From assembly GCA_037968875.1 (NCBI GenBank), contig JBBKWI010000085.1, positions 1,072-65,071 of the forward strand: a stretch of DNA of 64,000 nucleotides. Reading direction: 5' to 3'. Under the pieces are notes generated by a model. That model saw only the letters and a program-made list of their open reading frames with translations, did not search any database and was not told the DNA's origin. This document shows positions 19,815-64,000 of the stretch, in pieces. How positions within the stretch are numbered: the first letter of the stretch is position 1; each line of letters opens with the position of its first letter. Made by a program: the position numbers and the translations under genes. The DNA comes from Candidatus Sericytochromatia bacterium (GTDB lineage: Bacteria > Cyanobacteriota > Sericytochromatia > UBA7694).

Positions 19815-20546
19815 ATGAAACTAAGAAATCTATTTGTTTGCAGTCTGCTTTTGGCCCACTTAACGGTTTCTGCCAGTGCCAAACCCCAGGCGGTTTTTGG
19901 CTATACTTCGACCCCTCAGCAAGTGAGTCTCACACAAAATGGTTATGACTCTCTCAGCTTTAAGCAAGTTCCGACGAGCTTATCTCCGCTTTTAAGTGCC
20001 GATTTGGCAACCTTGTCTCGTCGTTTAAACCAGCTTCAATCTCAGCGCTTTGAGCCGCAATACCTTCAGCCAGTACTGGTTGCAGGTAAATTGCAGATAC
20101 GCTATCAGGATCAAGTCATGCTTGAGCCTAACCCGGCCTGGGCTCACTATTTTAATAAATCTGAATTAACGACCACCTTACTCTTAAACAATCGCTTGCG
20201 TCGTCACTTTGGGGTGGCTCCGTTACGGACCTACACATTCCTGAGTAATTCAAATGCTGATCAGGTTGGCTTTGCTTCCTGGTATGGTGAATTCTTTCAT
20301 GGGCGTCTAACTGCTAATGGTGAACGCTATGATGTCAATCAATTGACTGCAGCGCACAAACAACTGCCCTTTGGAACCCGAGTATTGGTGACTAACCTGG
20401 TCAGTAAAAAATCAGTTGTGGTTAAAATTAACGATCGTGGCCCCTTTAAAGCCAAACGTATCATTGATTTATCGCCAGCAGCCTTTAAGCAGATTGGTTA
20501 TTTGGGCACAGGGGTGATGCAAGTGAAACTGACGGTTTTATCTTAA
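19815..20546 (+). CDS. rlpA: Septal ring lytic transglycosylase RlpA-family lipoprotein (DPBB domain)
   Basis: ORF of 243 aa with '[18 protein letters not shown]....TAAHK.LPFGT.V.VTNL...[13 protein letters not shown]'. A strong SD (AAGGAGG) precedes the ATG. Confidence 0.75.
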
Positions 20547-48522: not shown

Positions 48523-50133
48523 TTACAATCTAAGGCCTGTGTAAGCCACTCCAGACAAATGTGCCATTTCGCGATCTAAGGTTCCCAGATCATCCAGACA
48601 AAATTGATTCAGATGATCATGACCACAGGCTCTGGCCATTACTTGCATCAATTCCACGCTGGCTTCAAAAAAGTTTTTAAGGCGCACGGCTGATTTTTGA
48701 ATATCCAGTCGGGCCCGTAAACTTTCTTTTTGAGTGGCAATTCCGACCGGGCAATAATCGGTGTGGCAGGCGCGCATCGCCTGACAGCCAATTGCCTGGA
48801 GTGCAGAGTTCGAGACCGCAATCGCATCGGCACCTAATGCCAGGGCTTTAATGAAGTCCGGGGCCGTGCGTAAGCCGCCGGTGATCACGAGGGTGACGTC
48901 TAAGCGGCCCAGACGATTAAGATGTTGGCGAGCTCTGGCCAAAGCAGCAATCGTAGGGACTGAAATATGGTTTCTAAAAATCAGTGGAGCAGCACCGGTT
49001 CCACCGCCCCGTCCATCGAGAATAAGATAGTCCACACCGATTTCTAAGGCTGCGTCTATATCGGCTTCGATGTGATTGGCTGAGAGTTTAAAGCCAATCG
49101 GGATGCCTCCACTGACAGAACGCACCTCTTCAGCCAGGCCTGTAAAGTCTGCTAACGAATGCATATCCGGGAAGGTTGCCGGTGAAATGGCCGGTTCTCC
49201 AGCAGGAATCCCACGTACTTCTGAGATTCTACCTTTGTTTTTGTGGCCAGGTAAATGACCACCGGTCCCTGTTTTTGCGCCCTGTCCACCTTTGAAGTGG
49301 AAAGCCTGTACCTGCGAGAGTAATTCCATTTTAAAGCCAAAGCGGGCCGAGGCCAATTCATAAAAATAGCGCTTGTTTTCAGCTTGCTCTTCAGGTAACA
49401 TGCCGCCTTCGCCTGAGCAAATACCGGTCCCGGCCATTTCTGCACCCCGGGCCAAAGCGATCTTTGACTCTTCCGACAGCGAGCCAAAGCTCATGTCAGA
49501 GACAAATAAGGGGATTTCAAGTATTAAAGGTTTTTTTGCTTTCGGTCCGATCACGACCTGGGTGCCCACAGGGGCTTCATCTAAGAGCGGGCGGCGCATC
49601 AATTGTGCCGGCAAGATTTGGATACTGTCCCAGGCGGGCAATTCATTGCGCCCCACACCCATGGCGGCGACGGGCCCATGGTGCCCCACTTTGCTTAAGC
49701 CATCTTTGGCTAGAGCCTGAATATCTGCCATTGTGTCTTCTTCAGGGGTCGGGGCGGTGGCTACAAAATTCCCCAGGTATTCGTCGCGCTTGAGCATGTG
49801 CGGATTCGCTTTGGCATATGCCTTGACTTCATCAGCATCGACCCAGACCTGATCCCCGTCTCGACCGGCACTAAATTTGTGCAAGACTTCAGCGTTATTG
49901 TATTGACTGACACCGGTATCCAGGCGATAGTCCCAGTTGTGTACACCACAGATTAGATTGTCACCCTCAACATAGCCATCAGCCATCAATGCACCGCGAT
50001 GTAAGCAGCGACCATAATAGACAGCAATCGTGTCATCAATGCGAAGCACCACCAGATCAATTTGTTGGGCCAGGGCATATGCGGGCTGACGATCTGCGAG
50101 ATCGTTCCAGCTATAAATGTTCTGCTTGTTCAT
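48523..50133 (-). CDS. Rieske [2Fe-2S] domain fused to a glutamate-synthase-like FMN-binding domain
   Basis: ORF of 536 aa. The N-terminus has 'CLH...(17)...CGVH', a Rieske CxH...CxxH motif. The C-terminus is a GltS-central-domain-like TIM barrel ('GEGGMLPEE', 'DGRGGGTGAAP'). Confidence 0.65.
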   Translation of the reverse strand: MNKQNIYSWNDLADRQPAYALAQQIDLVVLRIDDTIAVYYGRCLHRGALMADGYVEGDNLICGVHNWDYRLDTGVSQYNNAEVLHKFSAGRDGDQVWVDADEVKAYAKANPHMLKRDEYLGNFVATAPTPEEDTMADIQALAKDGLSKVGHHGPVAAMGVGRNELPAWDSIQILPAQLMRRPLLDEAPVGTQVVIGPKAKKPLILEIPLFVSDMSFGSLSEESKIALARGAEMAGTGICSGEGGMLPEEQAENKRYFYELASARFGFKMELLSQVQAFHFKGGQGAKTGTGGHLPGHKNKGRISEVRGIPAGEPAISPATFPDMHSLADFTGLAEEVRSVSGGIPIGFKLSANHIEADIDAALEIGVDYLILDGRGGGTGAAPLIFRNHISVPTIAALARARQHLNRLGRLDVTLVITGGLRTAPDFIKALALGADAIAVSNSALQAIGCQAMRACHTDYCPVGIATQKESLRARLDIQKSAVRLKNFFEASVELMQVMARACGHDHLNQFCLDDLGTLDREMAHLSGVAYTGLRL

Positions 50134-50145
50134 GGGTGAAGCTCC

Positions 50146-51009
50146 TTAGTGTGTGTGTACGATGTTTTGGCAGGCACGGGTCGCAGTCCTTAAAAAATGC
50201 TGACTATCTGCGAGTAAGTCAGCATGCTGAACCAGCTCTGAGCTTTTGAGAATAGCCCCAAACCAGCCGTCGGTCCGCCAAAAACCGCCTGCTGGCAATG
50301 CGGGTAGTGTATCAGGATTCAGGTTTTCGAGCTCTGGATGCGGCCAGGGTGTCACGTAAAAATAAGGCTCGTCATAATGACTGTCACCCGGTGAAAACCC
50401 GGCATTGACCTCGCCGGCTTTGACTTCGGGGTATTTTTGTAAGCTGGCCATGTCAAAATGATGAGGCCAACAGACCAATGGGGGCTGATCTGGAAATGAT
50501 TGTTGCACAACAGTTAAGGCTGTATGAGCGAGTTGAAACCATTGCTGCAAACATTTGAGTTTGTCTGGCTCCGGTGTAAAGGCTGCTCCTGCTTGTACTC
50601 CATGCTCAGGCATTTCGTGGGGGATCTCTTTGAGCGGATTCGTCGTTGGATCCGTGAGATTTAATTTTTCAGATAACCAGTTTTGAATCTCCGCCTGGGT
50701 GATGCCCTGGAGCTGGAGCTCTGGCGAATCTGTTTGTCTTGCGTGTGGGCGCAAAACGAAGCGAAATGGCTCAAAATGCAGTTCAAGCTCGCTGTAACCA
50801 TGGGCTGGAAGCGTTTGCAGTGGCTGGGTTTTAAAGCACTGAGACTCGGGATCCCAAGACATGGCATAGTGTAGCCAATCTTCATGAGAGACTCCATAAG
50901 TCAGTCCCCATTGTCCCAGCGCTTGTACTGCCCAATGCACTTGCAAACGGCTATCGATGAGTTGTGTCGTGTCATGATTTTTCAGGGTTTGGATATCTAT
51001 CTGAACCAT
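50146..51009 (-). CDS. Hypothetical protein (first gene of the Rieske-GltS operon)
   Basis: The ORF track extends to a TTG at 51060, but the ATG at ~51009 has a good SD (AAGAGAAAGAGG). I recognise no domain. Confidence 0.35.
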   Translation of the reverse strand: MVQIDIQTLKNHDTTQLIDSRLQVHWAVQALGQWGLTYGVSHEDWLHYAMSWDPESQCFKTQPLQTLPAHGYSELELHFEPFRFVLRPHARQTDSPELQLQGITQAEIQNWLSEKLNLTDPTTNPLKEIPHEMPEHGVQAGAAFTPEPDKLKCLQQWFQLAHTALTVVQQSFPDQPPLVCWPHHFDMASLQKYPEVKAGEVNAGFSPGDSHYDEPYFYVTPWPHPELENLNPDTLPALPAGGFWRTDGWFGAILKSSELVQHADLLADSQHFLRTATRACQNIVHTH

Positions 51010-51070
51010 ATCAGGCCTCTTTCTCTTGTCGATGATAGGTTTATCCTGACATAGGTTCAACTAGAGATGC

Positions 51071-51086
51071 TGTCACCTGCGTGACA
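51071..51086. promoter_or_regulatory. Candidate Crp/Fnr-family operator: TGTCA-CCTGCG-TGACA (perfect dyad)
   Basis: The site lies in the divergent intergenic region about 62 bp upstream of the ATG at 51009. It is one of six copies of this dyad found between 51 and 64 kb. Confidence 0.5.
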
Positions 51087-51128
51087 AAGTGTTTAAGTTA
51101 AATATGCTTAATTCTTAGTAAGCTAGAT

Positions 51129-51224
51129 TTAGTTTAAAAGTGAGGGGGCGGGATTCAGCCGAGTCATTTTGCGTTTTTGCATGCGGATCTTGGCCGGATC
51201 TCTGGGCAAATTGACAAGCTGAAA
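51129..51224 (-). pseudogene. Remnant 3' fragment of a Crp/Fnr-family regulator gene, paralogous to the 63603 gene
   Basis: The minus-strand reading frame gives '...LVNLPRDPAKIRMQKRKMTRLNPAPSLLN*'. The regulator C-terminus is '...LLKRLQDQGKIRMQKRKIIWLSPVSSLLS*'. The two share a ~30-nt core at about 88% identity (TTTTnCGTTTTTGCATGCGrATCTTGsCC), and an in-frame stop lies 32 codons upstream. Confidence 0.55.
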
Positions 51225-51348
51225 TTAATTGTCATTTACCAGACAGAATTCTTTTCCTTTTATGCTCTATACTTCCGCTAAATGCTCAGTTGAAGGGCCG
51301 TCAATGGCTTGCCGTTAGCAAAATCAACCCAAAGAGGACTCAGATTTA

Positions 51349-52854
51349 ATGCATATTGTTGAACCCCGTGATGCCCATAATATCGAATTGTTGAAGCAGG
51401 TGCACCCTGAAAACTGGAAAAACCCCCGACCAGACGGACCTTATAACCTGGTGGTAATTGGCGGCGGAACCGCCGGACTGGTTTCGGCTGCCGGTGCGGC
51501 AGGCCTCGGGGCCAAAGTTGCTTTAATTGAGCGCAGCTTAATGGGCGGAGACTGTCTCAATACAGGTTGCGTACCGTCCAAAGCCCTGATTCGCTCAGGA
51601 CGGGCCGCCCATGATATTCGTGAAGCTGCTCAATTTGGCATTCACAGTGAAATTCAGGAGATTGACTTTGCTGCCGCCATGGGCCGCATGCGCCAGGTGC
51701 GCGCACATATCAGCCATCATGATTCATTTGAGCGTTTTAAAAATCTAGGCATTGATGTTTATATGGGTTCCGCCCAGTTTATCAATGACCGTCAGATTCA
51801 GGTCGGAGACCAGATCCTGGACTTTAAAAAAGCGGTGATCGCCACGGGTGCACGGGCCCGTGTGCCAGATCTCCCCGGCTTGCAAGATGTCGGTTATTTA
51901 ACCAATGAAAATGTCTTTAATTTGACGGAGCTGCCCAAACGTCTGGTTTGTATCGGTGGGGGCCCGATTGGCTGCGAGCTAGCTCAGGCTTTTCATCGCC
52001 TGGGTGCCAAGGTCACGCTGATTCATAACAGTGATCATTTGCTCAACCGCGAAGATCCCGACGCCGCTGCAATTGTGCAGGACCAGTTTATCAATGAGGG
52101 AATTGAACTGATACTCAATGCTGAATTGACTGGCGTGAGTCAGTCGACAGAAGGTAAAGTCATTAATTATACGGTGCAAGGGCAGACCCGTCAGGTCCAT
52201 GCCGATGCTATTTTGCTGGCCACTGGCCGTCAGCCCAATGTCGATAATCTGGGACTCAAAGAAGCTGGGGTGCGCTTTAAGCCCCAGGGTGTGGATGTGA
52301 ACGATTTTTTACAGACCAGCAATCCCCGCATTTTTGCTGCCGGGGATGTCTGTATGCGTTGGCAATTTACCCATGCAGCAGATTTCGCGGCCCGGATTGT
52401 TTTGCAGAATGCTCTGTTTATGGGGCGTAAAAAATTATCGGGCTTGCTAATGCCCTGGTGCACCTATACGGATCCAGAAGTAGCACATGTGGGACTCTAT
52501 GCTCATGAGGCCAAAGCTCAGAATATTGCCGTGGATATTTATCAGAAACCCTTTTCAGAAGTCGATCGGGCGCTGGCGGACGGTGAAACCGAAGGCTTTG
52601 TCAAAGTGATCACAGCCAAAGGCAGCGATCGCATTCTGGGAGCGACCGTGGTGGCCCGTCATGCCGGGGATATGCTGGGCGAACTGACCCTGGCCATGCA
52701 GCACAAGATCGGTCTGGGCAAGATCGCTTCGGTGATTCATCCTTATCCAACTCAGGCAGAAGCAATCCGGCATTTGGGAGATCAATACAACCGCACCCGC
52801 CTGAAGCCCTGGGTCAAAAACCTGTTTAATACCTGGCTGCGTATGCGTCGTTAA
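51349..52854 (+). CDS. FAD-dependent pyridine-nucleotide-disulfide oxidoreductase (glutathione-reductase / dihydrolipoamide-dehydrogenase family)
   Basis: ORF of 501 aa with the redox-active 'GGDCLNTGCVPSK', two Rossmann GxGxxG motifs and a C-terminal dimerisation-domain 'HPYPTQAE'-type His-Pro. Confidence 0.8.
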   Translation: MHIVEPRDAHNIELLKQVHPENWKNPRPDGPYNLVVIGGGTAGLVSAAGAAGLGAKVALIERSLMGGDCLNTGCVPSKALIRSGRAAHDIREAAQFGIHSEIQEIDFAAAMGRMRQVRAHISHHDSFERFKNLGIDVYMGSAQFINDRQIQVGDQILDFKKAVIATGARARVPDLPGLQDVGYLTNENVFNLTELPKRLVCIGGGPIGCELAQAFHRLGAKVTLIHNSDHLLNREDPDAAAIVQDQFINEGIELILNAELTGVSQSTEGKVINYTVQGQTRQVHADAILLATGRQPNVDNLGLKEAGVRFKPQGVDVNDFLQTSNPRIFAAGDVCMRWQFTHAADFAARIVLQNALFMGRKKLSGLLMPWCTYTDPEVAHVGLYAHEAKAQNIAVDIYQKPFSEVDRALADGETEGFVKVITAKGSDRILGATVVARHAGDMLGELTLAMQHKIGLGKIASVIHPYPTQAEAIRHLGDQYNRTRLKPWVKNLFNTWLRMRR

Positions 52855-52879
52855 GCTGATAGCTATCAAAGGAGAACCT

Positions 52880-53239
52880 GTGAAGATCTTTAGCCTGTTT
52901 GAAAAACTCTGGCAGCGGCTACAGCCAGCCGTAAACGCCAGCCGTTTTGCGGGCTTTGATCTGGATAAGCCCCCTACAGAATTGGTGTTATACAAGTTTA
53001 ATAGCTGTATTTTTTGCCAGCGAGTGATGGGCTTTATCGACCAGCACCAGCTGCCGGTGAGCTATCGGGATTTGCGAGAGCATTCAGAGTATCGCCAGGA
53101 ACTGCTGGCTCTCACTGGCCGGAGCCAGGTGCCCTGTTTGTTGATCGACGGCCAGCCTATGCTAGAGTCGGCAGATATTGTGGCCTATCTGCATCATGTT
53201 TTTGTCTCAGGAGGAAAGAGCAATGCCGAAATACTTTAA
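52880..53239 (+). CDS. Glutaredoxin-like thioredoxin-fold protein (CxxC)
   Basis: ORF of 119 aa with 'YKFNSCIFCQRV' as the active site and a Grx-like 'VPCLLIDGQ'. It has a GTG start with AAGGAG 7 nt upstream. Confidence 0.55.
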   Translation: MKIFSLFEKLWQRLQPAVNASRFAGFDLDKPPTELVLYKFNSCIFCQRVMGFIDQHQLPVSYRDLREHSEYRQELLALTGRSQVPCLLIDGQPMLESADIVAYLHHVFVSGGKSNAEIL

Positions 53240-53284
53240 AAGCATGGCTTAAACCCCCACCTTTTTTATAAATGGCAATGTTTT

Positions 53285-53300
53285 TGTTAGCTGGCTGACA
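53285..53300. promoter_or_regulatory. Candidate Crp/Fnr-family operator: TGTTA-GCTGGC-TGACA (1 mismatch)
   Basis: The site lies about 91 bp upstream of the peroxiredoxin-like ATG at 53384. Confidence 0.4.
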
Positions 53301-53383
53301 GAATAGGATAGCCCCTATTGTTTAATCTAAATATACCGGGCAGACCTGATCTGCACGAATCAGTACGAATATAGGAGTGTGAC

Positions 53384-54028
53384 ATGTCTCTCAATACCGA
53401 ACTCAAAGCCTTTAACCAGCAGGGTTTAGCCCAGATGCCCGCCGAGATGGTTGATACGATTCAGCAAGGGCTCAAAGAGCTGCAGGCCAGTAGCCTGGAA
53501 GCGCAAGCGCTAAGACGGGGGCGCTTTCCTGATTTTGACTTACCCAATGCCCTGGGACAAACGATTCGTTTAAGCGACATTTTGCAAAAGGGCCCGGCAG
53601 TCATCAGCTTTTATCGCGGCAGTTGGTGTCCGTACTGCAATATTGAGCTACGAGCGCACCAACAGCTGTTGCCAGAGCTTCAGGCTCTGGGTGCCCAATT
53701 GATAGCTATTTCACCAGAACAACCGGATTACAGCCTGAACCTCAAAGAAAAGAAAAACCTTGCCTTTGAAGTACTCAGTGATACCGACAACCAGCTGGCC
53801 AAACAACTGGGCCTGGTGGCTGATCTGAGCCAGGCACTGGATCAACTCTATCAGAAGGTGCTGCAGGCCAATGTGGCTGAGCGCAACGGCACACCATCCC
53901 CCCAGCTGCCCATCCCCGCAACGTACGTACTCAATAGCGACGGAGAAATTCTGTTGGCCCATGTTCAGGTGGATTATACCCAGCGACTGGAGCCTGCTGA
54001 GATTCTTGAGACGCTCAAGCAAATCTGA
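53384..54028 (+). CDS. Peroxiredoxin-like (AhpC/TSA / redoxin family) protein
   Basis: ORF of 214 aa with 'FYRGSWCPYCN', a thioredoxin-fold CxxC, in a Prx-like context. Confidence 0.55.
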   Translation: MSLNTELKAFNQQGLAQMPAEMVDTIQQGLKELQASSLEAQALRRGRFPDFDLPNALGQTIRLSDILQKGPAVISFYRGSWCPYCNIELRAHQQLLPELQALGAQLIAISPEQPDYSLNLKEKKNLAFEVLSDTDNQLAKQLGLVADLSQALDQLYQKVLQANVAERNGTPSPQLPIPATYVLNSDGEILLAHVQVDYTQRLEPAEILETLKQI

Positions 54029-54089
54029 ATTTTTTTCCACTGTGTTAGGCCATTTGACTGGCCTTGCCCGCCCAGGCGTGACACAATCT

Positions 54090-54512
54090 TCAGTCTTGTA
54101 GGTCTCGTTCTTGTAGACGATTCTGAAACTGGTGCTGCTTGATCTCAATGGCCCGTGAAGCGAAAACAATCAAGAGCACCAGTGCAATTAGCCAGGCTAA
54201 AATACCCAGGCAGAGGCCCCAGCGGCTAAACCCACTGAGATTTTCAAACAGTGAGCTGATCGCAACCAGTAAAAAAGAGCCTGCGCTAGCATAAAGACAG
54301 AACAAGCTTTGGCTTAGCCGCTTAAGTTGCTGTATTTTTTGGCGTGTCAATTGCTGATCCAGCGGATTTTGCTGCAGCAAGGTGTGGATCTCCTGACTTA
54401 AATAAACCGATAGGTTGACCGTTGACATAATCACCAGCCCGACTCCGGGCATCAGGCTGAGAGGCAATATAGCTTGTTCTAAAAGATTCATTGAAAATAG
54501 GCCTGTCTTCAT
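54090..54512 (-). CDS. Small membrane protein (3–4 transmembrane segments)
   Basis: ORF of 140 aa. It is the last gene of the operon containing the Met-rich protein and cytochrome c. The true start may be the second ATG ('MNLLEQ'), just after the hairpin. Confidence 0.4.
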   Translation of the reverse strand: MKTGLFSMNLLEQAILPLSLMPGVGLVIMSTVNLSVYLSQEIHTLLQQNPLDQQLTRQKIQQLKRLSQSLFCLYASAGSFLLVAISSLFENLSGFSRWGLCLGILAWLIALVLLIVFASRAIEIKQHQFQNRLQERDLQD

Positions 54513-54524
54513 TTAGACAGGCCT
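54499..54524 (-). terminator. Strong 10-bp GC-rich hairpin between cytochrome c and the membrane-protein gene
   Basis: AGGCCTGTCT-tcattt-AGACAGGCCT. On the minus-strand mRNA it is followed by AUUUUCA, then an AUG. The annotated first AUG sits in the loop. Confidence 0.35.
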
Positions 54525-54533
54525 AACTCCTTT

Positions 54534-54896
54534 TTATTTCTTTTTCAGGGTGTGTATATAGGCAACAACATCCTGAATTTGCGTATCAGACAGGGTCGTT
54601 CCCCAGGCCGGCATCGCCCCTTTGCCCTTCTTGATAAAGGCCAGCATTCCAGCATCATTTTTGCTGTACTTAAAATCCCCTATCGAAAAATTCCGTGGGG
54701 GTGGCTTCAGGGCTTTGCCCGTTGGGCCGTCCGCCTTGCCGGTTTTGCCATGACAGGCAGAACAGTTTTGGGCATAGATTTTTTTACCCTTGCTGGCATT
54801 GCCTGCCGCAGCTTCAGCGGGTGGGCTGCTTTGCCATAGAGCAGCATAAGACATGCCTCCGCTAACAGCTATAATCAGAGCTAATTTTTTAAACAT
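54534..54896 (-). CDS. Class I c-type cytochrome (c6/c553-like), secreted
   Basis: ORF of 120 aa with a signal peptide, the single heme-binding 'CSACHG' and a distal Met ligand region 'GAMPAWG'. Confidence 0.75.
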   Translation of the reverse strand: MFKKLALIIAVSGGMSYAALWQSSPPAEAAAGNASKGKKIYAQNCSACHGKTGKADGPTGKALKPPPRNFSIGDFKYSKNDAGMLAFIKKGKGAMPAWGTTLSDTQIQDVVAYIHTLKKK

Positions 54897-54918
54897 TTCT
54901 GAACTCCTTTTTTATGAT

Positions 54919-56787
54919 TTACTTTAGTTTGAGGGTAATGCTACTGCGAACCACAGGAGCGGTCCCATACTTGCCCCCGGCAAACATGGGATTAGGTACA
55001 CCATCTTCATCGGTATCACGCATTTCCATCATCATTTTCATGCGTTGGTCTTGCGGCATTGTCATTAACTTTTTCATCTGCAGGGTCATTTTCGCCATTT
55101 CAATTTCGTCCTCGGGAAGATCTTCACCGGATTGCCCCATTTCAGCCAATTGCAGTCCCTGGCCATCTTCGCGTCTAACGGTGTGGTTGAAAAAGAGCGT
55201 CATGTGTTTGACTGCATCAGCCTGCAGCGGTTCTGAAGCCAGGGCCAGGTCGCGCAAAGCACCCAGTGTTGCAGCCACCGTCGCAGGGCTAAAAGTAGTC
55301 TGGTGTTGATCGTTGCGCTGGGCTTTAAACAATTGATTGGATTCAGACCAGAATTGTTGCTTCAGAGCCTGGTACCCTTTGCTAGCTGCACTCAGGTAAC
55401 GGGCATCTTTTGTGGTTTTATAAGCCAGAGTCAGTGTTCTGATGGCCTGGGTCTGGGCTTCCAGGTTAGGGTTAGTCAAATCAGCTTGTTGACGATTCAA
55501 GTCATAACCGTTGGCAAAACTGCCATCTTTTTGTTGCAGCTGATTCAGTACAAAATCAGCTTGCTGGGTTAAAAAATCTCGGGCCATTTTTTGAATCATG
55601 GGCTCATTATGAAAAGCCCGCACACTGTTTTCAAGCGCAACGGCCAGGACGCCCAGTTCAGCGGTGTCGGCGTAAGTGCCTGCTTTACCCGGTTCAGCAC
55701 GGCTGGCCATCACCTGATGCTGTGAGTTTTGATGCATGGCCATCAAATTTTTGAGAATCACCGCCGAAATACCCTTGCTTAACATATGGGGATCTTGAGG
55801 AAAGAGGGCACCTTTGCTTTCGTCGCCAAAGATAGCATCATAGCTGTCTTTGACTGTGGGGTCTGAATAGTGGTAAAACTCACTGCTGGCCCAGAGTAAA
55901 GAAGCCTGATCATAAAGGTGACTGCTTTTATCCAGGACATCAAAGCCAGCCAGCATGGGGGGCATACCTGGCATCATCGACTTCAGTTGGGGTTTGACGG
56001 CGTGTGGAAAATACTTCAGGCCTTGCATGGGATCGTAAGTCATGGGATTGACGGCACCCAGATTTTTCCCATCAAACGCCAGTTGATCTTTAAAGGTCAT
56101 CAGACTGTTGAGTGCCAAAGCGGTCAGGACGCCGCCACGAAAACCATCAAAAGCATCTCTGCCCAGGAGATTGCCGCGATGCGATGAGAAAAAGTCTTCG
56201 GCCCAGAGGATTTGTTTGGTGGCTGTTTGACCGATGGCTGCTGGGGTCAGGGTTTGATCGGCCTGCCCAGGGTCCCAGCGCATGGTGCCAAAGTCAAAGG
56301 GGTTGGGGCTTTGGGTAAATTGGGGATTGCCTTCAGCAAAGGGTAAATAGATCGGGTAGGGATTTTTGGGCATCTCTTGTAGCCCGGAGCGCATCATAAA
56401 TTGCTTCATTTTGTGCATCATAAAATCCTGGGGTTTGGCAAATTTGTCAGGATTCATTTTAGACATTTGCTGTCCCACTGGGCCATTGACCATATGCACA
56501 CCCATGCCGGAGTTCATCACCAGGCTGCCCATATTGTAAACGCTATACCAATAGGCATCTGAATTGATGCTGGAGCCCAGTGATTTATACGGCAGGCCGC
56601 AGGAAAAAATTAGAATTTCTTCATTGGCCAGCTGCATTGCTGCCGCGGTATTAAAGCGCGGGGCCTTGTGCTTGTCAGCCATCATCATGTCCTGTTCAGC
56701 TGCCAGAGCCGAAGTCGGAACCAGCTGCACAAACAACACGGAGGCTGCTGTCAGGTTCAGTATTTTGGACGGTAAGGATAATTTCAT
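54919..56787 (-). CDS. Secreted Met-rich protein of unknown function
   Basis: ORF of 622 aa with a signal peptide. It has Met clusters at both ends ('EQDMMMADKH', 'FMMHKMKQFMMR', 'MKMMMEMR'). It contains no CxxCH motif. Confidence 0.4.
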   Translation of the reverse strand: MKLSLPSKILNLTAASVLFVQLVPTSALAAEQDMMMADKHKAPRFNTAAAMQLANEEILIFSCGLPYKSLGSSINSDAYWYSVYNMGSLVMNSGMGVHMVNGPVGQQMSKMNPDKFAKPQDFMMHKMKQFMMRSGLQEMPKNPYPIYLPFAEGNPQFTQSPNPFDFGTMRWDPGQADQTLTPAAIGQTATKQILWAEDFFSSHRGNLLGRDAFDGFRGGVLTALALNSLMTFKDQLAFDGKNLGAVNPMTYDPMQGLKYFPHAVKPQLKSMMPGMPPMLAGFDVLDKSSHLYDQASLLWASSEFYHYSDPTVKDSYDAIFGDESKGALFPQDPHMLSKGISAVILKNLMAMHQNSQHQVMASRAEPGKAGTYADTAELGVLAVALENSVRAFHNEPMIQKMARDFLTQQADFVLNQLQQKDGSFANGYDLNRQQADLTNPNLEAQTQAIRTLTLAYKTTKDARYLSAASKGYQALKQQFWSESNQLFKAQRNDQHQTTFSPATVAATLGALRDLALASEPLQADAVKHMTLFFNHTVRREDGQGLQLAEMGQSGEDLPEDEIEMAKMTLQMKKLMTMPQDQRMKMMMEMRDTDEDGVPNPMFAGGKYGTAPVVRSSITLKLK

Positions 56788-56849
56788 GGTGCCTCTTCAA
56801 TTTTTTTTCGAGAATAGGTTTAGTATTAAACAAATGAGTCTGGATATAC

Positions 56850-56865
56850 TGTCAGCCAGATGACG
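56850..56865. promoter_or_regulatory. Candidate Crp/Fnr-family operator: TGTCA-GCCAGA-TGACG (1 mismatch)
   Basis: The site lies about 65–80 bp upstream of the Met-rich protein ATG at 56787. Confidence 0.4.
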
Positions 56866-57023
56866 AATTGAATTTTTGCAGCAGAGATACCGCATATTTT
56901 AAACGGAAGACCTGTCTGGCTGCTGGAAAATTGCCACATGGAGTGCTCAGTCCGGGTGAGTGCTCAGCATGGCGGGGAGCCGGCAAAGCATGTATCAGCA
57001 CAGTCAAAAGGACTAAGGAGCTG

Positions 57024-57707
57024 TTAGAGGCAGTGTTGGTAAAATGCTGGCCAAAGCTCCAACCGAATATCCGGGTAAGCTGCAAGTATCTGTTGCAGGG
57101 TTGTCAAATCAGCTGCAAAGGGGTCCAGAAGAGGAGCAAAGGGGTGTAAGGGTTCAGACAGGGGCTTGCTAAAATCATCCCAGTGCACAGCCACAACGCG
57201 CTGAACACCCCGACCCGCAATCAAGGCCTGTGCAAAGGCCTGTTGCTCCGCCAGGCTCAGGCGATGCAGCCCCGGTGTGCTGACAAAGAGAGTCTGCCAT
57301 CGACCCGGCCATTGTGCCATGGCGGGTGTTAGGCGGGTGCCGTGTAGCAAACTATTACCTCGTGGGTGTTGAATCAAAATATTGTATGTTCCTCCTTCGC
57401 GGTAATGAAGCATATGTGCCGGTTGGGTGACAGGTGAGTGGATCTCGCCATCCAGGCCTAGCCAATGGGCCAGCGGACCGAGTGACATATGCTGACCCGG
57501 AGCCATGGTGATCTCAAAATCTCCCAGCTGATAGCGAGCGCCTGGTATCGCTATCATCATTTGGGATTCAGGCAAACCCGCCCCGCAATGTTCAGATAGT
57601 GTTGCGGGCATCCACTGGGCATAGCTGGCCGGATCGGGTGGTTGCAATGCCACACAAGAGCTCAGACTGATCAGCAGCGCGCTGAAAAAAGGCAATAGAC
57701 GAATCAT
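57024..57707 (-). CDS. Hypothetical lipoprotein
   Basis: ORF of 227 aa with a signal peptide and the lipobox 'ISLSSC'. Confidence 0.35.
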   Translation of the reverse strand: MIRLLPFFSALLISLSSCVALQPPDPASYAQWMPATLSEHCGAGLPESQMMIAIPGARYQLGDFEITMAPGQHMSLGPLAHWLGLDGEIHSPVTQPAHMLHYREGGTYNILIQHPRGNSLLHGTRLTPAMAQWPGRWQTLFVSTPGLHRLSLAEQQAFAQALIAGRGVQRVVAVHWDDFSKPLSEPLHPFAPLLDPFAADLTTLQQILAAYPDIRLELWPAFYQHCL

Positions 57708-57741
57708 AATCTTCAGTGTAAAGACAAAAGGATGCTGAAAC

Positions 57742-57757
57742 TGTCAGGGGGATGACA
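57742..57757. promoter_or_regulatory. Candidate Crp/Fnr-family operator: TGTCA-GGGGGA-TGACA (perfect dyad)
   Basis: The site is central in the divergent 57708–57811 intergenic region, 62 bp before the DUF4344 ATG and 42 bp before the minus-strand gene start. Confidence 0.5.
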
Positions 57758-57811
57758 GTCTCAATGCCCTACGAGAGGGTATGCTGAAAGCAAATCAAAA
57801 GAGGGTTCACC

Positions 57812-58555
57812 ATGCGTTTACAATATATGCTTTGGCTCTGCCTGTTGCTCCTGTCAGCCTGTGGCTCGATACACCCGCTGGATCAAGGAGTCCGTGAGAC
57901 CAGCAATCAAGCCTTTCGGATTCAATTGGCTGAAGAGCTCCGTTCGGAGACAATGCGCTTTGCACCTGTTCTGGCACGTTTTGAGCGCACCCTTGAGGCC
58001 TTGCCGCTGGCGCTGCAGCAGCAAATCACCGTTGAGATCCGTAACTGTGCACAGCCCAGCGCTTTTTATCAGCCTGCTGAGCGTTTGATTGTGATGTGTC
58101 CTGGCTTATTGGAGACCCTGATCCAACGTTTTGATGAGACACAAGCTCAGGAGGTTTTTCATTTTGTGATGCTGCATGAATTGTCTCATGCCCTGATTGA
58201 TCAATTGAATTTGCCGATTCTGGGCAGTGAAGAGGATGCTGCCGATGCCATGGCGACTGTGCTTTTGCTGGAGCAGGATCATTCGCCGCTGGGAGCGATT
58301 CTGGCGGGCATTGATTTTTACGAGCAGTTTCGCCGGGGTTTTGCGACCCCCTGGGCCGGGGTGCACGCTATTGGACCTCAACGCATGTTTAATCTTGTCT
58401 GCTGGGCTGTTGGCGGTCAGCCTGAGCTGCTTTCAGACCCCCTCATTCGGCGTCTGCATGGTGAAATGCAGACGCTAAACCGCCACTGTAGCCAGGAGTA
58501 CGACCAGCAATTGCAGGCCGTGAATCACCTGCTGGCACTGGACTCACGAAGATAG
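57812..58555 (+). CDS. DUF4344-like putative secreted zinc metallopeptidase
   Basis: ORF of 247 aa with a signal peptide and 'MLHELSHALID', an HExxH motif. Confidence 0.5.
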   Translation: MRLQYMLWLCLLLLSACGSIHPLDQGVRETSNQAFRIQLAEELRSETMRFAPVLARFERTLEALPLALQQQITVEIRNCAQPSAFYQPAERLIVMCPGLLETLIQRFDETQAQEVFHFVMLHELSHALIDQLNLPILGSEEDAADAMATVLLLEQDHSPLGAILAGIDFYEQFRRGFATPWAGVHAIGPQRMFNLVCWAVGGQPELLSDPLIRRLHGEMQTLNRHCSQEYDQQLQAVNHLLALDSRR

Positions 58556-58594
58556 CGTATTGGATCGTTTTTCTGATGGGTTTGTTTCTCCTAT

Positions 58595-59719
58595 TTACTC
58601 GGCTGAATAGATGCTGCTGTCAGGTCGAAAGACCAACCAGGCAAAGGCAAAATAATCGCCATAAGGCAAAAGCTTCAATTGTTGACCCTGCAACGGGCCT
58701 GTCAGGGCTTGACCCGTTGCGCTCCAGACCGATCCGGTTTGCTGATCACGCACCTGTCCGGCCTGCCATTCAAAGCTTAATACTTTACCCTGCACCACAG
58801 GATCAAAAACCCCTGTAGTGCCCGCCTGCTGTGAGTCAGCAATCTTGCTGGCATCCAGTGCTGAAACGGCACCATCCAGATGAAAAACCACCAAATCCTG
58901 AGTGCCCACCCGATCCTGAATGACGCGCTGCTGCCGGGTCAGACGGTAGGGATATGCTTTGCTCTGATCTGAAAAATGGACACCCAAGACCTTTTCCATG
59001 GGCGGCAGGCGCGGATCGGTTTCACCGTCAAAGCGAAAAGGCCGCTGAGAAATATCGTCGTAACCTCGGTAAGGATTATGGCCATAATCGCGCTCATAAC
59101 CCGTTTCACGTGAGAGAACCTGGCCTTCAGGGTGCTGGGCCTGAAACTGTTCAAAAGAAATAATCTGTGAAGGCCTGACTTTCAGCTGGGCTCCGGTCAG
59201 ATTGCCGACCACAGCTTCACCGGTAAATTGTTGCCAGAGACTCTCAGTTTGCCGGTCATACATGATCATATCTGAATGGCGCAACATGCCCGAAACGCCA
59301 AACTCCAGAGTCTTTGAGCCCACGATGCGTTCAAAAACCAGTGCGCTGTAGCAGAGCGGGCAAAAGGTGATCAGTACCGGTTGGCCTTCAAAGATATCAT
59401 TCACCATTTCATGCCAGATCAGAATTTGCAGCGGATAGGCCCGGGCTTCCTGGCTACCCGCCAGTGCAATTACGGGCTCCTGGGGCTTGAGCCATTGACT
59501 GGCCGCTGCTAAAGTAATAAATCGAGGGTGATCAATGCTAGGAATACCGTCTTTTGGCGGTCCGCCGGGCAAAAGCTCCTGCAGGGGGATACTACTTTTA
59601 CTTAAATCAGTCTCAAATCCACTGATAGGCAATGCGAGTGAAGAACTTGAATCAGACATAATGGCTCCTGTGTGTGTATTTAGTGCAGTGAGTGCGGCAG
59701 AGAGCTGGAACGGCTGCAA
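58595..59719 (-). CDS. DUF3179-family protein
   Basis: ORF of 374 aa with 'HEMVNDIFEG.PVLITFCPLCYSALVF...FGVSGMLRHSDMIMYDRQTESLWQQ'. Confidence 0.45.
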   Translation of the reverse strand: MQPFQLSAALTALNTHTGAIMSDSSSSLALPISGFETDLSKSSIPLQELLPGGPPKDGIPSIDHPRFITLAAASQWLKPQEPVIALAGSQEARAYPLQILIWHEMVNDIFEGQPVLITFCPLCYSALVFERIVGSKTLEFGVSGMLRHSDMIMYDRQTESLWQQFTGEAVVGNLTGAQLKVRPSQIISFEQFQAQHPEGQVLSRETGYERDYGHNPYRGYDDISQRPFRFDGETDPRLPPMEKVLGVHFSDQSKAYPYRLTRQQRVIQDRVGTQDLVVFHLDGAVSALDASKIADSQQAGTTGVFDPVVQGKVLSFEWQAGQVRDQQTGSVWSATGQALTGPLQGQQLKLLPYGDYFAFAWLVFRPDSSIYSAE

Positions 59720-59766
59720 GAATATGCTGCAATAAATTCATACTATAGGAAACAAAATCTTTTGAA

Positions 59767-59782
59767 TGTCAGATAGCTGACA
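59767..59782. promoter_or_regulatory. Candidate Crp/Fnr-family operator: TGTCA-GATAGC-TGACA (perfect dyad)
   Basis: The site lies in the divergent region, 55 bp before the DUF3179 start and about 123 bp before the ALS-like ATG. Confidence 0.5.
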
Positions 59783-59897
59783 TGCGTTAAGATATTCAAA
59801 ATGATATGCTCAAATTCAGAATCATAATTAAAATTCAGATTTTTTCTGCTATTTACTTAAATTTATTTGATTTACTAAGAATAGGATCACACATATC

Positions 59898-61538
59898 ATG
59901 AAGGCATCTGATTTATTTATAAAAGCACTAGAAAACGAAGGCGTTGAGTATATCTTTGGTATTCCGGGTGAAGAGAATCTGGATTTTTTGGATTCATTAA
60001 AGAATTCCTCAATCAAACTGATTTTGACTCGCCATGAGCAGGGAGCCGGTTTTATGGCTGCAACTTATGGTCGCTTAACAGGCAAAGTAGGTGTTTGTCT
60101 TTCAACCTTAGGCCCGGGTGCAACAAATTTAGTCACTCCAGCAGCTTATGCCAATTTAGGGGCCATGCCCATGCTGATGATCACAGGCCAAAAGCCCATT
60201 AAGAAAAGCAAACAAGGACGTTTTCAAATCATCGATACGGTCAATATGATGCGCCCACTCACCAAATACAGCGAGCAGATCGTGAATGGAAACAATATTC
60301 CTGCGATGACCCGAGAGGCGATACGACTGGCAATAGAAGAGCGTCCCGGAGCCGTACATTTAGAGCTTCCTGAAGATATCGCAGCAGAAGCCTGTGAGGA
60401 TCGTGTCTTTGCAGTGGTGGGACATCGTCGACCCGATGCCGATGAACAAGCCATATTAGAAGCTGTCGCCATGATTGAAAAAGCCAAGATGCCGCTGATT
60501 TTAATTGGAGCAGGTGCCAATCGAAAACCCACCAGCAAGGCATTGAATAAACTGATTGAAAAAACCAATATTCCTTTTTTCAATACCCAATTGGGCAAAG
60601 GGGTTGTAGATGAAAGACACCCTCGATTTTTAGGGACAGCAGCCTTATCAGACCATGATTTTCTTCATTGCGCTGTCAATAGAGCCGATCTGATCATTAA
60701 CGTGGGTCACGATGTCATCGAAAAACCGCCCTTTTTTATGGACCAAATCAAAAAAGTCATTCATCTGAACTTTTTCCCTGCTGAGGTTGATGAAGTCTAT
60801 TTCCCTCAGCTCAACGTGGTCGGAGATATCGCGACCTCACTTGAACATATTGCCGATCATATCAAAGAAAAATCTGAAAATTGGGATTTCTCCTATTTTG
60901 AACGGATTAAAACAGAAGTCGAATCCCATTTATCAAAATACGAAAAGGATCAGCGTTTTCCGATACTGCCTCAAAGACTGGTTAAAATAGTGAGAGAGCA
61001 TTTGCCAGAAGATGGCATTGTGACTCTGGATAATGGTGTGTATAAAATTTGGTTTGCTCGAAATTTCCCATCTTATCAACCCAATACCCTTTTATTGGAC
61101 AATGCCCTGGCAACGATGGGGGCTGGACTACCATCAGCTATCGCCGCAAAAATAGTTTTCCCAGAACGCAAAGTTATCTCTGTTTGCGGAGACGGTGGGT
61201 TTATGATGAATTCCCAGGAACTAGAAACAGCCGTTCGTTTGGGCTTGGATTTGGTCGTCATTGTTTTAAATGACCGTTCATATGGCATGATCAAATGGAA
61301 GCAAGAAGCCATGGGCTTTGCTAATTTCGGATTAGAATATCAAAACCCTGATTTTGTTAAATATGCTGAAAGTTATGGGGCCGTCGGGCATCGCCCCCAA
61401 AGCACCCAGGAATTCACTCAAATTTTAGATCAAACGCTTAATGCTAAAGGGATTCACTTGATTGATTTAGCAGTGGATTACAGCCTGAATCATCGTATTT
61501 TAAATGTCTTACTTAAAGAAAAAACCTGTGTTTTATAA
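59898..61538 (+). CDS. Thiamine-pyrophosphate enzyme, acetolactate-synthase (catabolic AlsS)-like
   Basis: ORF of 546 aa with the TPP-binding 'GDGGFMMNSQELETA' and ALS-family N- and middle domains. Confidence 0.75.
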   Translation: MKASDLFIKALENEGVEYIFGIPGEENLDFLDSLKNSSIKLILTRHEQGAGFMAATYGRLTGKVGVCLSTLGPGATNLVTPAAYANLGAMPMLMITGQKPIKKSKQGRFQIIDTVNMMRPLTKYSEQIVNGNNIPAMTREAIRLAIEERPGAVHLELPEDIAAEACEDRVFAVVGHRRPDADEQAILEAVAMIEKAKMPLILIGAGANRKPTSKALNKLIEKTNIPFFNTQLGKGVVDERHPRFLGTAALSDHDFLHCAVNRADLIINVGHDVIEKPPFFMDQIKKVIHLNFFPAEVDEVYFPQLNVVGDIATSLEHIADHIKEKSENWDFSYFERIKTEVESHLSKYEKDQRFPILPQRLVKIVREHLPEDGIVTLDNGVYKIWFARNFPSYQPNTLLLDNALATMGAGLPSAIAAKIVFPERKVISVCGDGGFMMNSQELETAVRLGLDLVVIVLNDRSYGMIKWKQEAMGFANFGLEYQNPDFVKYAESYGAVGHRPQSTQEFTQILDQTLNAKGIHLIDLAVDYSLNHRILNVLLKEKTCVL

Positions 61539-61559
61539 AAACTGAAAGCGGTTCAAACA

Positions 61560-62951
61560 ATGAAAACATTAAATGTATACGCACCCCATGATCAAAGTCT
61601 GATTCAAGAGATTGCTCTGATGGGAGCAGCTGAATTAGAACATATGATTAACAAAGCCCATCAGCTATTTCAAAACCCTGATCAAGCCTTGCCTGCTTAT
61701 GAACGGGTCGATATTTTGGAAAGAGTGGTTCATATTATGAATCAACAAGTCGAACGCCTAACCAAAATAGCCGCAGAAGAAGGGGGGAAACCTTATCAAG
61801 ACTCAAAAGTAGAGGTCCTGAGAGCGATCAATGGGGTGAAATTGGCGATTGAACATATCAGCCAGTTAAAAGGGGAACAAATCCCAATGGGGCACACTCG
61901 CTCTTCAGCTCAACGCCTGGCTTTTACAACCAGAGAACCGATTGGATTGGTCGCCTCTGTTAGCGCTTTTAATCATCCTTTGAATCTGATTATTCATCAA
62001 ACCATACCTGCGATTGCTGTTGGTTCGCCCGTGATTGTGAAACCGGCTGGGACAACCCCGCTTTCTTGCCTGGCTTTCATGGATATATTAAAAGAAGCCG
62101 GCTTGCCTGAAGGGTGGTGTAGCGCCTTTATTGGCAATCGAGAATTGGCTGAGAAATTAGTCACAGATTCTCGGGTGAACTATTTCTCTTTTATTGGCTC
62201 AGGGGGTGTGGGCTGGTCTTTACGTTCAAAACTCTCTCCAGGGACTCGCTGTGCTCTTGAACATGGCGGGGTTGCACCGGTCATTGTAGAGCCTGATGCA
62301 GATATAGAAAGCATGTTGCCGGCTTTACTTAAGGGCGGCTTTTATCATGCGGGTCAGGTCTGTGTCTCTGTGCAACGTATTTATGTACACCAAAAAATTT
62401 GTACACAAGTGGCCCAACAATTGGCCGAAATGGCAGAAAAACTAGTCGTTGGAAACCCTCTGAACGAAGATACAGAAGTGGGACCCTTAATTCTACCCAA
62501 AGAAGTAGACCGGGTCGAAAGCTGGGTCAATGAGGCTATCGAATTGGGTGCGACTGTATTGTGTGGTGGCAAACGTTTGTCTGATACTTACTATGCACCC
62601 ACAGTGCTGCTGAATCCACCTGATACGGCCAAAATTTCTAGCCAAGAAGTTTTTGGCCCCGTCGTTTGTGTTTATAGTTATGCTGACAGAGCTGAAGCCA
62701 TCAAAAGAGCCAATGCTTTACCTTATGCTTTTCAAGCCGCTATTTTCACCAATGATCTCAATGTGAGTTTGGAACTGGTTAAGCAACTCAATGCCACAGC
62801 AGTGATGGTGAATGACCATACTGCCTTCAGAGTCGATTGGATGCCTTTTGGGGGTCGAGATGTTTCAGGTATTGGTATGGGCGGCATTCCCTATTCTATG
62901 CATGAAATGACCCGCACAAAAATGATGGTGATTAAGTATAAAAATGGATAG
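61560..62951 (+). CDS. NAD(P)-dependent aldehyde dehydrogenase
   Basis: ORF of 463 aa with 'ALEHGG' (the catalytic Glu region), 'FYHAGQVCVSVQR' (the catalytic Cys) and 'FIGSGGVG'. Confidence 0.8.
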   Translation: MKTLNVYAPHDQSLIQEIALMGAAELEHMINKAHQLFQNPDQALPAYERVDILERVVHIMNQQVERLTKIAAEEGGKPYQDSKVEVLRAINGVKLAIEHISQLKGEQIPMGHTRSSAQRLAFTTREPIGLVASVSAFNHPLNLIIHQTIPAIAVGSPVIVKPAGTTPLSCLAFMDILKEAGLPEGWCSAFIGNRELAEKLVTDSRVNYFSFIGSGGVGWSLRSKLSPGTRCALEHGGVAPVIVEPDADIESMLPALLKGGFYHAGQVCVSVQRIYVHQKICTQVAQQLAEMAEKLVVGNPLNEDTEVGPLILPKEVDRVESWVNEAIELGATVLCGGKRLSDTYYAPTVLLNPPDTAKISSQEVFGPVVCVYSYADRAEAIKRANALPYAFQAAIFTNDLNVSLELVKQLNATAVMVNDHTAFRVDWMPFGGRDVSGIGMGGIPYSMHEMTRTKMMVIKYKNG

Positions 62952-62968
62952 GGATTTGCGTCAAGGTC

Positions 62969-63427
62969 TTAGTCAGTTTTAGATTTTGGCTCTTTTAATA
63001 CCCATAAAGTATCAAAATCTCTGAGTAAAAAGAGTGAGATGCAAGCGGCAAGCATAGGCCAGGCAGCAAAAAACAAGAGGCTTTTCCAGGGATTTAAGTA
63101 TTGCTTATAAGAACTAAAGGTAGATACACTATGCATCAATAAGATAAGTCCATAAGTATATTTTTTCTTAAATCCAATAACAAAGGCAAAAACCACAGCC
63201 AATTGAAGTGAGGCAATAAGGGACAGAACTTGTGAACTCATATCAGGAAGCGCATAAAAGTTTTTAAAAATCATTGTGGCATGATTGGGATTGATCAATT
63301 TATCCAAACTCCACATAAGCATGACCAAAAATATGCTCAACCGCAATAGAGTTAAGGAAATAGCCAGTTTTTCTTTAAGACTTTTAATTTCAAAATCCTG
63401 CATTTGAGAAGCTGCCTTCAGTTTCAA
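62969..63427 (-). CDS. Small membrane protein (4 transmembrane segments)
   Basis: ORF of 152 aa. It lies downstream of the 63512 dyad. Confidence 0.4.
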   Translation of the reverse strand: MKLKAASQMQDFEIKSLKEKLAISLTLLRLSIFLVMLMWSLDKLINPNHATMIFKNFYALPDMSSQVLSLIASLQLAVVFAFVIGFKKKYTYGLILLMHSVSTFSSYKQYLNPWKSLLFFAAWPMLAACISLFLLRDFDTLWVLKEPKSKTD

Positions 63428-63511
63428 TAAAATTCGTCACTTTTAGATGGACACTAAATTTTAGAGCAAATATACTCTTATAAAAGGTTAACATACGAAA
63501 ATAAATAGAGC

Positions 63512-63527
63512 TGTCATCTACCTGACA
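63512..63527. promoter_or_regulatory. Candidate Crp/Fnr-family operator: TGTCA-TCTACC-TGACA (perfect dyad)
   Basis: The site lies about 85–92 bp upstream of the membrane-protein start at 63427 and about 80 bp past the regulator stop. Confidence 0.5.
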
Positions 63528-63602
63528 TTTTTTCGTCCATACATGCTTAGATTGAGCAGAGTCAAACGAACACAAAATAGAGCTATTTTATAGCATGTGG
63601 GT

Positions 63603-64000
63603 CTAGCTTAAAAGCGAACTGACGGGACTCAACCAGATGATTTTTCGTTTTTGCATGCGAATCTTGCCCTGGTCTTGCAGGCGCTTGAGCAAATCCGTGA
63701 CCGTGGGCCGGGCCAGGTTGGTCAACTCGCCCAGATCCTGATGGGTCAGGGGTAAATTGATCAGCGTACCGTCTGGCAAGGATTCACCGTGCTCTTTGCT
63801 GAGGTATTTTAAGACACTTTCAATCCGCTGCTCAGCAGTTTTAAAGACCAGATCCTGCACGCGGCTTGTGACCTGGCGCAGGCGTAAACCCATTAGCTTG
63901 GTGACTTTGAGATTGAGTTGGGGGTGACTTTCTAAAAAGGATTCAAAGTCATTTTTATGTACGATGCAGAGCAAGGTTTCTTCCAGGGCTTCAGCCATGC
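63603..64000 (-). CDS. Crp/Fnr-family transcriptional regulator (3' part; the gene continues beyond the window end)
   Basis: It shows cNMP-binding-like and HTH_Crp C-terminal regions ('THQDLGELTNLARPTVTDLLKRL'). The N-terminus lies outside the window. Confidence 0.65.
   Translation of the reverse strand, partial: MAEALEETLLCIVHKNDFESFLESHPQLNLKVTKLMGLRLRQVTSRVQDLVFKTAEQRIESVLKYLSKEHGESLPDGTLINLPLTHQDLGELTNLARPTVTDLLKRLQDQGKIRMQKRKIIWLSPVSSLLS

Follow-up and report, generated by a model that had tools for sequence, protein, structure and literature searches.

The stretch of DNA analysed here (the window) covers 64,000 nt of a 68,299-bp contig from a member of the Sericytochromatia, the non-photosynthetic sister group of cyanobacteria, a placement to which protein searches also led. 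Within it, the spacer 51061-51348 separates a DUF5996-like gene on the minus strand from an oxidoreductase gene on the plus strand. The spacer holds a short open frame on the minus strand, flanked on each side by an operator-like palindrome, and a gene of the Crp/Fnr family (crp) stands some 12 kb away. The genes and sites around the frame are as follows.

50146-51009, minus strand: DUF5996-like gene, the first of a DUF5996 / Rieske-GltS pair; downstream of the frame and on the same strand
51071-51086: perfect palindrome TGTCACCTGCGTGACA, 43 nt past the stop codon of the frame and ~61 nt upstream of ATG 51009
51230-51245: operator-like palindrome upstream of the oxidoreductase gene, TGTCATTTACCAGACA, which departs from TGTCA-N6-TGACA at one position; its form in the relative L010 is TGTCATCTACCAGACA
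51268-51273, plus strand: TATACT, a -10-like hexamer, 30.5 nt from the operator centre and kept in L010
51349-52854, plus strand: FAD-containing pyridine-nucleotide-disulfide oxidoreductase, MerA/Lpd-like subfamily (Pfam, NCBIfam)
63512-63527: perfect operator TGTCATCTACCTGACA, 76 nt past the stop codon of the intact crp gene and upstream of the minus-strand gene 62969-63427
63603-64000, minus strand: surviving crp gene, codons 98-228 in the window, running off its end; Pfam matches to HTH_Crp_2 and Crp

The DUF5996-like ORF was listed from TTG 51060, and ATG 51009 is preceded by aagagg. The ATG is the more likely start; it puts the operator ~61 nt upstream of the gene, matching the 67 nt by which the equivalent operator in the relative L096 (TGTCATATAGCTGACA) precedes the DUF5996 orthologue. 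The palindrome at 51071-51086 is part of the DUF5996 promoter block and not of the frame. The second gene of the pair (48523-50133, minus strand) encodes a 536-aa protein with an N-terminal Rieske [2Fe-2S] domain and a glutamate synthase FMN domain, is co-oriented with the DUF5996-like gene and falls under the same operator. On the oxidoreductase side, the operator and TATACT at their spacing of 30.5 nt are compatible with a Crp-dependent promoter of class-II type; our sigma-70 scan, which requires a -35 hexamer, did not report the TATACT at 51268-51273.

With one mismatch allowed, TGTCA-N6-TGACA occurs ten times in the window where 1.9 occurrences are expected, and four of the ten are perfect. 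The pattern scan lists sites at 51071, 51230, 53285, 56850, 57742, 59767 and 63512, and also at 20333, 45086 and 52599. Eight sites, including the two that flank the frame, fall in promoter gaps of the stretch 51071-63527. The 12.5-kb cluster that they mark contains genes for the oxidoreductase, a glutaredoxin (Grx), a peroxiredoxin (Prx), a cytochrome c, DUF4344 and DUF3179 proteins, a TPP enzyme, an aldehyde dehydrogenase and a membrane protein, and the same motif stands before orthologous genes in three relatives (L002, L010 and L096). The cluster gives the impression of a compact regulon under the Crp encoded at 63603, and both operators that flank the frame are now presumably served in trans by that protein. 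The palindrome has the 5-6-5 geometry of a CRP-like site. The classic CRP site is TGTGA-N6-TCACA and the FNR site TTGAT-N4-ATCAA; TGTCA-N6-TGACA resembles the CooA site more than either. A literature search for the motif found no papers.

A minus-strand frame matching the end of crp

The frame is open for 31 codons (51132-51224, minus strand; FQLVNLPRDPAKIRMQKRKMTRLNPAPSLLN), closes with TAA at 51129-51131 and is directly preceded by an in-frame TAA at 51225-51227. The initial annotation, made from the letters of the window, had described such a 31-residue frame and a stop truncating it upstream, and both are present. It had also aligned the whole frame with the last ~30 residues of the regulator at 63603. 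That alignment stands for the last 24 codons, which match the last 24 codons of crp (63603-63998, minus strand) without a gap and with the stop codons in the same register; the first 7-11 residues come instead from crp codons 39-49, as described below. The residue core given as identical, AKIRMQKRK, is so from its second residue on (KIRMQKRK); the fragment has A before it, the regulator G.

A blastn comparison of the spacer 51061-51348 with the 64-kb window returned one non-self match, an ungapped alignment of 72 nt at 76.4% identity (E 1.3e-9) between the frame and the 3′ end of crp; the next best match had an E-value of at least 0.18. The same pairing was found by tblastn within the window (24 aa, 58% identity, E 8e-4). 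Similarity drops to chance level just beyond the stop codon and upstream of ~51203. The figure of ~88% over ~30 nt that had been put forward agrees with our counts, 24/26 in the core of the alignment and 25/30 in its best 30-nt window; the longest perfect core is 14 nt.

The 26-nt core (AAGATYCGCATGCAAAAACGMAAAAT) has exactly two occurrences in the 64 kb, versus 0.00 expected from shuffles. Because one of the two copies is the crp gene itself, and 51000-51400 shows no repeat families, the match does not behave like a dispersed repeat or MITE. Nor did we find within the window any longer repeat shared with unrelated loci, the outcome that the initial annotation had named as adverse to its proposal.

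Two pieces and two implied deletions

Read codon by codon, the sequence indicates that the stump, as we call the frame from here on, is not a contiguous crp 3′ end; it is a two-piece in-frame fusion of crp codons 39-49 with codons 209-228 and the stop, a detail absent from the initial annotation.

51129-51191, minus strand: C-terminal crp piece, codons 209-228 (KIRMQKRKMTRLNPAPSLLN) and the original stop TAA at 51129-51131
51192-51224, minus strand: N-terminal crp piece, codons 39-49 from the cNMP-binding domain, in frame with the C-terminal piece
51219-51229: proposed upstream-deletion junction, with CTGAAA at 51219-51224 and the in-frame TAA at 51225-51227

The N-terminal piece reads FQLVNLPRDPA against FQPVYLPGDPA, a conserved motif (F/YQPVYLPGDPA) of the crp sensor domain. 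For 51192-51224 we looked for the best match without gaps in crp of three relatives, and each time it started at nt 115 in frame 0. The scores were 25/33 for L012 (reached in 0 of 5000 shuffles) and 22/33 for both L010 and L002 (4 of 5000 each); they concern a piece of only 33 nt, and the match to the crp of the closest relative, L010, is the weaker one compared with L012. A gapped local alignment to crp scored as high in 0 of 1000 shuffles. Compared with the organism's own full-length Crp (P0136), 8 of 11 residues are identical over residues 39-49; residues 38-49 of that protein, which was recovered in full through its protein cluster, are KFQPVYLPGDPA.

Two other origins for this part of the stump were tried and rejected. 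Taken as the contiguous upstream part of the C-terminus (VTDLLKRLQDQG), frame residues 1-11 match at 14/33 nt by hand count, versus 25/33 for codons 39-49. Taken as a continuation of the intergenic region found in L010, 51192-51229 matches only in the 7-mer CTGAAAT, as did 174 of 1000 shuffles.

Little remains of the domains of the parent protein. Full-length relatives carry the sensor domain PF00027, of which 11 codons (39-49) are left in the stump. The helix-turn-helix (PF13545 / PF00325) is gone, since the C-terminal piece starts at K209, past the recognition helix (LTHQDLGELTNLARPTVTDLLKRL is missing).

Two deletions are implied by the two-piece structure. The first removed the crp promoter and codons 1-38 together with the half of the intergenic region next to crp, equivalent to ~9917 to 10114 in L010. 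It stopped 5 nt short of the oxidoreductase operator, where a microhomology (TTTCAG/CTGAAA) may have been involved: the CTGAAA at 51219-51224 can be aligned either with a CTGAAA beside the operator in the L010 intergenic region or with crp codons 39-40 (TTTCAG), so that 6 nt of microhomology at the upstream deletion are possible. The second took out codons 50-208 and with them the helix-turn-helix, the dimerisation helix and the greater part of the cNMP-type sensor domain. The junction of codons 39-49 with codons 209-228 can be placed anywhere in 51192-51203. After both events 96 nt remained, codons 39-49 fused to 209-228 and the stop.

The intact gene in relatives and the surviving copy

The initial annotation had proposed looking in relatives for a Crp-family gene that is intact at this syntenic position, and such a gene was found. 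Of the relatives found, L010 (from an ENA assembly labelled Cyanobacteria_JACYMC01) is the closest; its oxidoreductase and Crp are 91.6% and 90.8% identical to the proteins of the window. L011 has the same arrangement. In both, the oxidoreductase gene on the minus strand is followed, after a gap of 323 nt, by an intact crp gene of 228 aa on the plus strand, the two being directly divergent. The correspondence between the window and L010 runs as follows.

Window 51326 onward, L010 9700 downward (descending, the oxidoreductase being on the minus strand there): ribosome-binding site (RBS) and coding sequence
Window 51227-51277, L010 9913-9863: operator, TGTCATCTACCAGACA in L010, and TATACT, with 21/22 identity in the first stretch
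Window 51130-51191, L010 10686-10625: crp 3′ end, 62 nt at 82% identity, E 4e-11

The full blastn match on the oxidoreductase side (window 51327-52000) is at 85% identity. The window retains the oxidoreductase-side half of an L010-type intergenic region and then the crp stump, and by this alignment the position and orientation of the stump are those of the intact crp in the nearest relative. The synteny supports the proposal that a regulator once sat in the redox island and was later deleted or pseudogenised.

L010 and L011 probably count as one lineage, as they share blast statistics, gene order and identical crp 3′ ends; direct divergent adjacency of crp and the oxidoreductase gene was seen in one close lineage only. 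The oxidoreductase is the conserved divergent partner of crp in relatives, followed in the window by the glutaredoxin and peroxiredoxin genes, all on the plus strand. In L002 and in L098/L099/L102, crp stands divergent to a longer operon that includes the oxidoreductase gene (81-aa gene, Trx-like, DsbD, in part YceI, P460 and a 280-aa gene, then the oxidoreductase), and L015 has crp immediately upstream of the oxidoreductase gene and in tandem with it. The parent gene resembles other divergently placed Crp/Fnr regulators in this setting, with its cNMP_binding and HTH_Crp_2 domains and its place opposite an oxidoreductase operon in relatives.

The flank on the other side of the stump varies. 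An acyltransferase gene comes after crp in L010. L096, with the closest DUF5996 protein (73% identical), has a peroxiredoxin gene and an operator before the DUF5996 gene, not crp; relatives therefore differ by rearrangement on the left flank, which lends no direct support. Homologues of the genes that accompany crp elsewhere (81-aa, Trx-like, DsbD, YceI, P460, GlutR-like, acyltransferase and CopZ-like) were not found in the window. Two broader searches gave more distant loci. The Crp search of genome contigs from GTDB representatives returned relatives of at most 63% identity, which offer family context only, and the DUF5996-like search of metagenome contigs returned 80 loci, all at most 42% identical (at most 35% over most of the query) and uninformative for synteny.

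The surviving crp lies ~12.4-12.5 kb from the stump, on the same strand, at the other edge of the operator-rich cluster. The window ends within this gene, and the DNA 5′ of it lies beyond base 64000. The full protein, P0136, is complete at 228 aa and encoded on the same contig; over its C-terminal 131 aa it does not differ from the translation of the window. It scores far below the NCBIfam cut-offs for NtcA, CRP, PtrA and Fnr, and by these profile comparisons the parent regulator ranks as a generic Crp/Fnr protein. The intact gene and the stump share a layout in which the crp end is followed by an operator and then by the next gene, and the regions past the two stop codons have a weak local similarity centred on the operator (6/300 shuffles).

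The age of the duplication can be approached through the 72 nt that the stump shares with both genes. Identity is 54/72 between the stump and the L010 crp, 53/72 between the stump and the intact copy, and 57/72 between the intact copy and L010. Among informative sites, 7 place the stump with L010, 6 place it with the intact copy and 10 place the intact copy with L010, while at 2 all three differ. The three sequences thus appear as a three-way split in which no pair is grouped. The stump has the longest branch, with 10 unique changes and the 2 three-way differences in 72 nt. The intact crp is 86.4% identical to that of L010 at the DNA level, and the oxidoreductase gene 84.9% identical to its orthologue; third-position differences against L010 amount to 27% in crp and 34% in the oxidoreductase gene. 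From the three-way split and these matched divergences it follows that the duplication and the split from the L010 lineage are of roughly equal age. The divergence of the stump since then, ~25%, is comparable to the near-neutral divergence between the two genomes.

The pattern of substitutions may reflect relaxed constraint on the stump. Differences at first, second and third codon positions number 4, 8 and 7 against the intact copy and 4, 6 and 8 against L010. Between the intact copy and the L010 crp they number 10, 8 and 36 over 396 nt, so that 36/54 are at third positions. Three replacements in the stump (P41L, Y43N and G46R) affect positions at which every family member seen has the same residue. 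The signal comes from ~100 nt in all, in which the differences are spread over codon positions but the 26-nt core has no unique change. This core (51166-51191) carries no stump-specific change, versus ~18 in the other ~79 nt, for which simulation gives P about 0.03-0.07. It is a marginal hint that may reflect constraint, an inactivation more recent than the duplication, or chance.

Origin of the stump and competing explanations

We put the probability at about 0.88 that the stump is the non-functional remnant of a Crp/Fnr-family regulator gene at the gene's ancestral position. In the common ancestor with L010, crp was divergent from the oxidoreductase gene across a shared intergenic region with a TGTCA-N6-TGACA operator. 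In this lineage a second copy lies 12.4 kb off at 63603, on the other edge of the same operator-rich cluster, and the original copy was destroyed through the two deletions. Selection would keep the flanking operators and promoters and not the stump, which may persist simply as a spacer between two divergent promoter blocks. The initial annotation had offered two alternatives, loss of a paralogue or a leftover of the duplication by which the regulator moved; these amount to the same, inseparable history.

What is expected of a remnant was found, namely significant homology, an intact syntenic orthologue and disabling deletions. Of what is expected of a functional Crp/Fnr gene, the sensor domain, the helix-turn-helix and a complete ORF with a start codon and RBS are all absent. 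Unlike the Crp/Fnr regulators, the stump is without every functional domain of the family, and it is placed outside the functional family because all the defining domains are missing. That the deletion spared the operator beside the stump to within 5 nt is an argument for assigning the TGTCA-N6-TGACA sites to this Crp.

Of the other explanations, the one that survives best is a tandem duplication of the whole ~12.4-kb unit, from crp through 62969-63427, with decay of the first crp and loss of the second downstream copies. This is a variant of the remnant explanation and changes only the route of relocation, compared with a duplication or transposition of crp alone. The direct orientation and the 12.5-kb spacing would fit it, as would the operator that in both places comes after the crp stop and before the next same-strand gene, and the three-way split suggests a duplication about as old as the L010 split. 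Apart from the operator, however, no similarity was detected downstream of the two stops, and for the other genes of the cluster the window showed neither a second copy nor a remnant. We regard it as a possible route, though an unlikely one.

A stump retained for a function, be it as antisense sequence in the oxidoreductase leader, as a micropeptide of 26-31 aa or as a protein-binding or spacer element, is improbable. The 26-nt core without remnant-specific substitution (P about 0.03-0.07) speaks for it. So does a sigma-70-like site on the plus strand (51081-51108), from which transcription would cross the stump in antisense, but promoter-like sites in the scan are weakly enriched (3 vs 0.9 +/- 1.0 expected). 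The frame is open for 31 codons, which happens by chance in ~23% of cases, (61/64)^31. The stump has neither an ATG nor an RBS, and its sole start-like codon is an internal TTG (51207-51209) without a Shine-Dalgarno sequence. No terminator was found at the stump, it has 0 Rfam matches at E <= 1, and its folds (z-scores of -1.5 and -1.8) are not significant. The stump is most likely inert, with no protein made.

The segments 51153-51171 and 51207-51225 are partly complementary, at ~16/19 in a hand alignment that includes one gap. In the minus-strand fold they pair as a hairpin (-23.4 kcal/mol, z = -1.8). Complementarity of TTCAGCC with GGCTGAA is already present between codons 39-41 and 219-221 of intact crp genes. 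The complementarity between the two pieces of the stump is probably a coincidence, partly inherited from the parent gene.

A more specific form of reuse, which we hold to be decidedly improbable, has the stump serve as antisense within a long oxidoreductase leader, the 26-nt core pairing with the 3′ end of the surviving crp mRNA; in a weaker version the stump would be a spacer of obligatory length between two divergent Crp-controlled promoters. If the antisense version were true, a pseudogene relic would feed back on its functional paralogue.

Integrative elements insert at tRNA genes or at gene 3′ ends, bringing a replacement 3′ end, and the two crp 3′ ends could be seen as attL/attR-like flanks of a 12.4-kb island (51204-63603) integrated in the 3′ end of crp. 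Like attL and attR, they are direct repeats of a gene 3′ end, spaced by 12.5 kb on one strand; the operator-rich cluster lies between the two, and each ends at the crp stop. Unlike such flanks, they are only 76% identical with a perfect core of 14 nt, and the ORFs of at least 90 aa between them contain no integrase, recombinase or transposase by Pfam. The DNA inside the left flank is the oxidoreductase promoter, the native neighbour of the full-length crp in relatives, and duplication of a 3′ end at an att site leaves the N-terminal piece (codons 39-49) inexplicable. An origin by integration is therefore very hard to sustain. Chance or low-complexity resemblance, with no gene ever there, would suit a short match (72 nt) with an A-rich core but has next to no probability given the blastn E-value of 1.3e-9, the 0 core occurrences expected in shuffles, the independent match to the L010 crp (E 4e-11), the stop codons in register and the intact gene at the same position in a relative.

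Degraded gene remnants in bacterial intergenic DNA are known, among them the pseudogene relics of Rickettsia and Mycobacterium leprae. Like these, the stump is short, non-coding, homologous to a functional gene, truncated by deletion and located where relatives have the intact gene, and its substitutions are no longer concentrated at third codon positions. Unlike these, it is not part of a genome-wide reductive decay, and a functional duplicate lies 12 kb away in the same regulon cluster; it is also an in-frame fusion of non-adjacent pieces, made with both neighbouring promoter/operator blocks spared. The stump itself is known from one genome. It is an ordinary gene remnant of the classical kind, documented unusually completely by a positional orthologue, both junctions and a surviving duplicate.

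The stump raises no new biological question, and its value lies in annotation and evolutionary reconstruction. Annotators are warned that the 26-aa ORF starting at the TTG should not be called a gene. On the remnant explanation, the stump marks where the regulator gene originally sat, opposite its oxidoreductase target and divergent to it, and shows a relocation within the regulator's own regulon cluster in this lineage. It is also a small, clean example of how two deletions, one possibly mediated by microhomology, reduce a bacterial gene to an in-frame stump.

Two further disrupted frames came up in the relatives. In L096, the peroxiredoxin homologue at 1-250 has an in-frame TAG where the protein of the window has Tyr; the contig has a coverage of 2.4x, and the TAG could be the mark of a pseudogene or a sequencing error. 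In L010 (8003-8146; 5831-5974 in L011), the oxidoreductase gene is followed by a 47-aa glutaredoxin stump, 66% identical to residues 1-47 of the 119-aa Grx of the window. With this second gene remnant, in another lineage, the locus appears to be prone to deletion.
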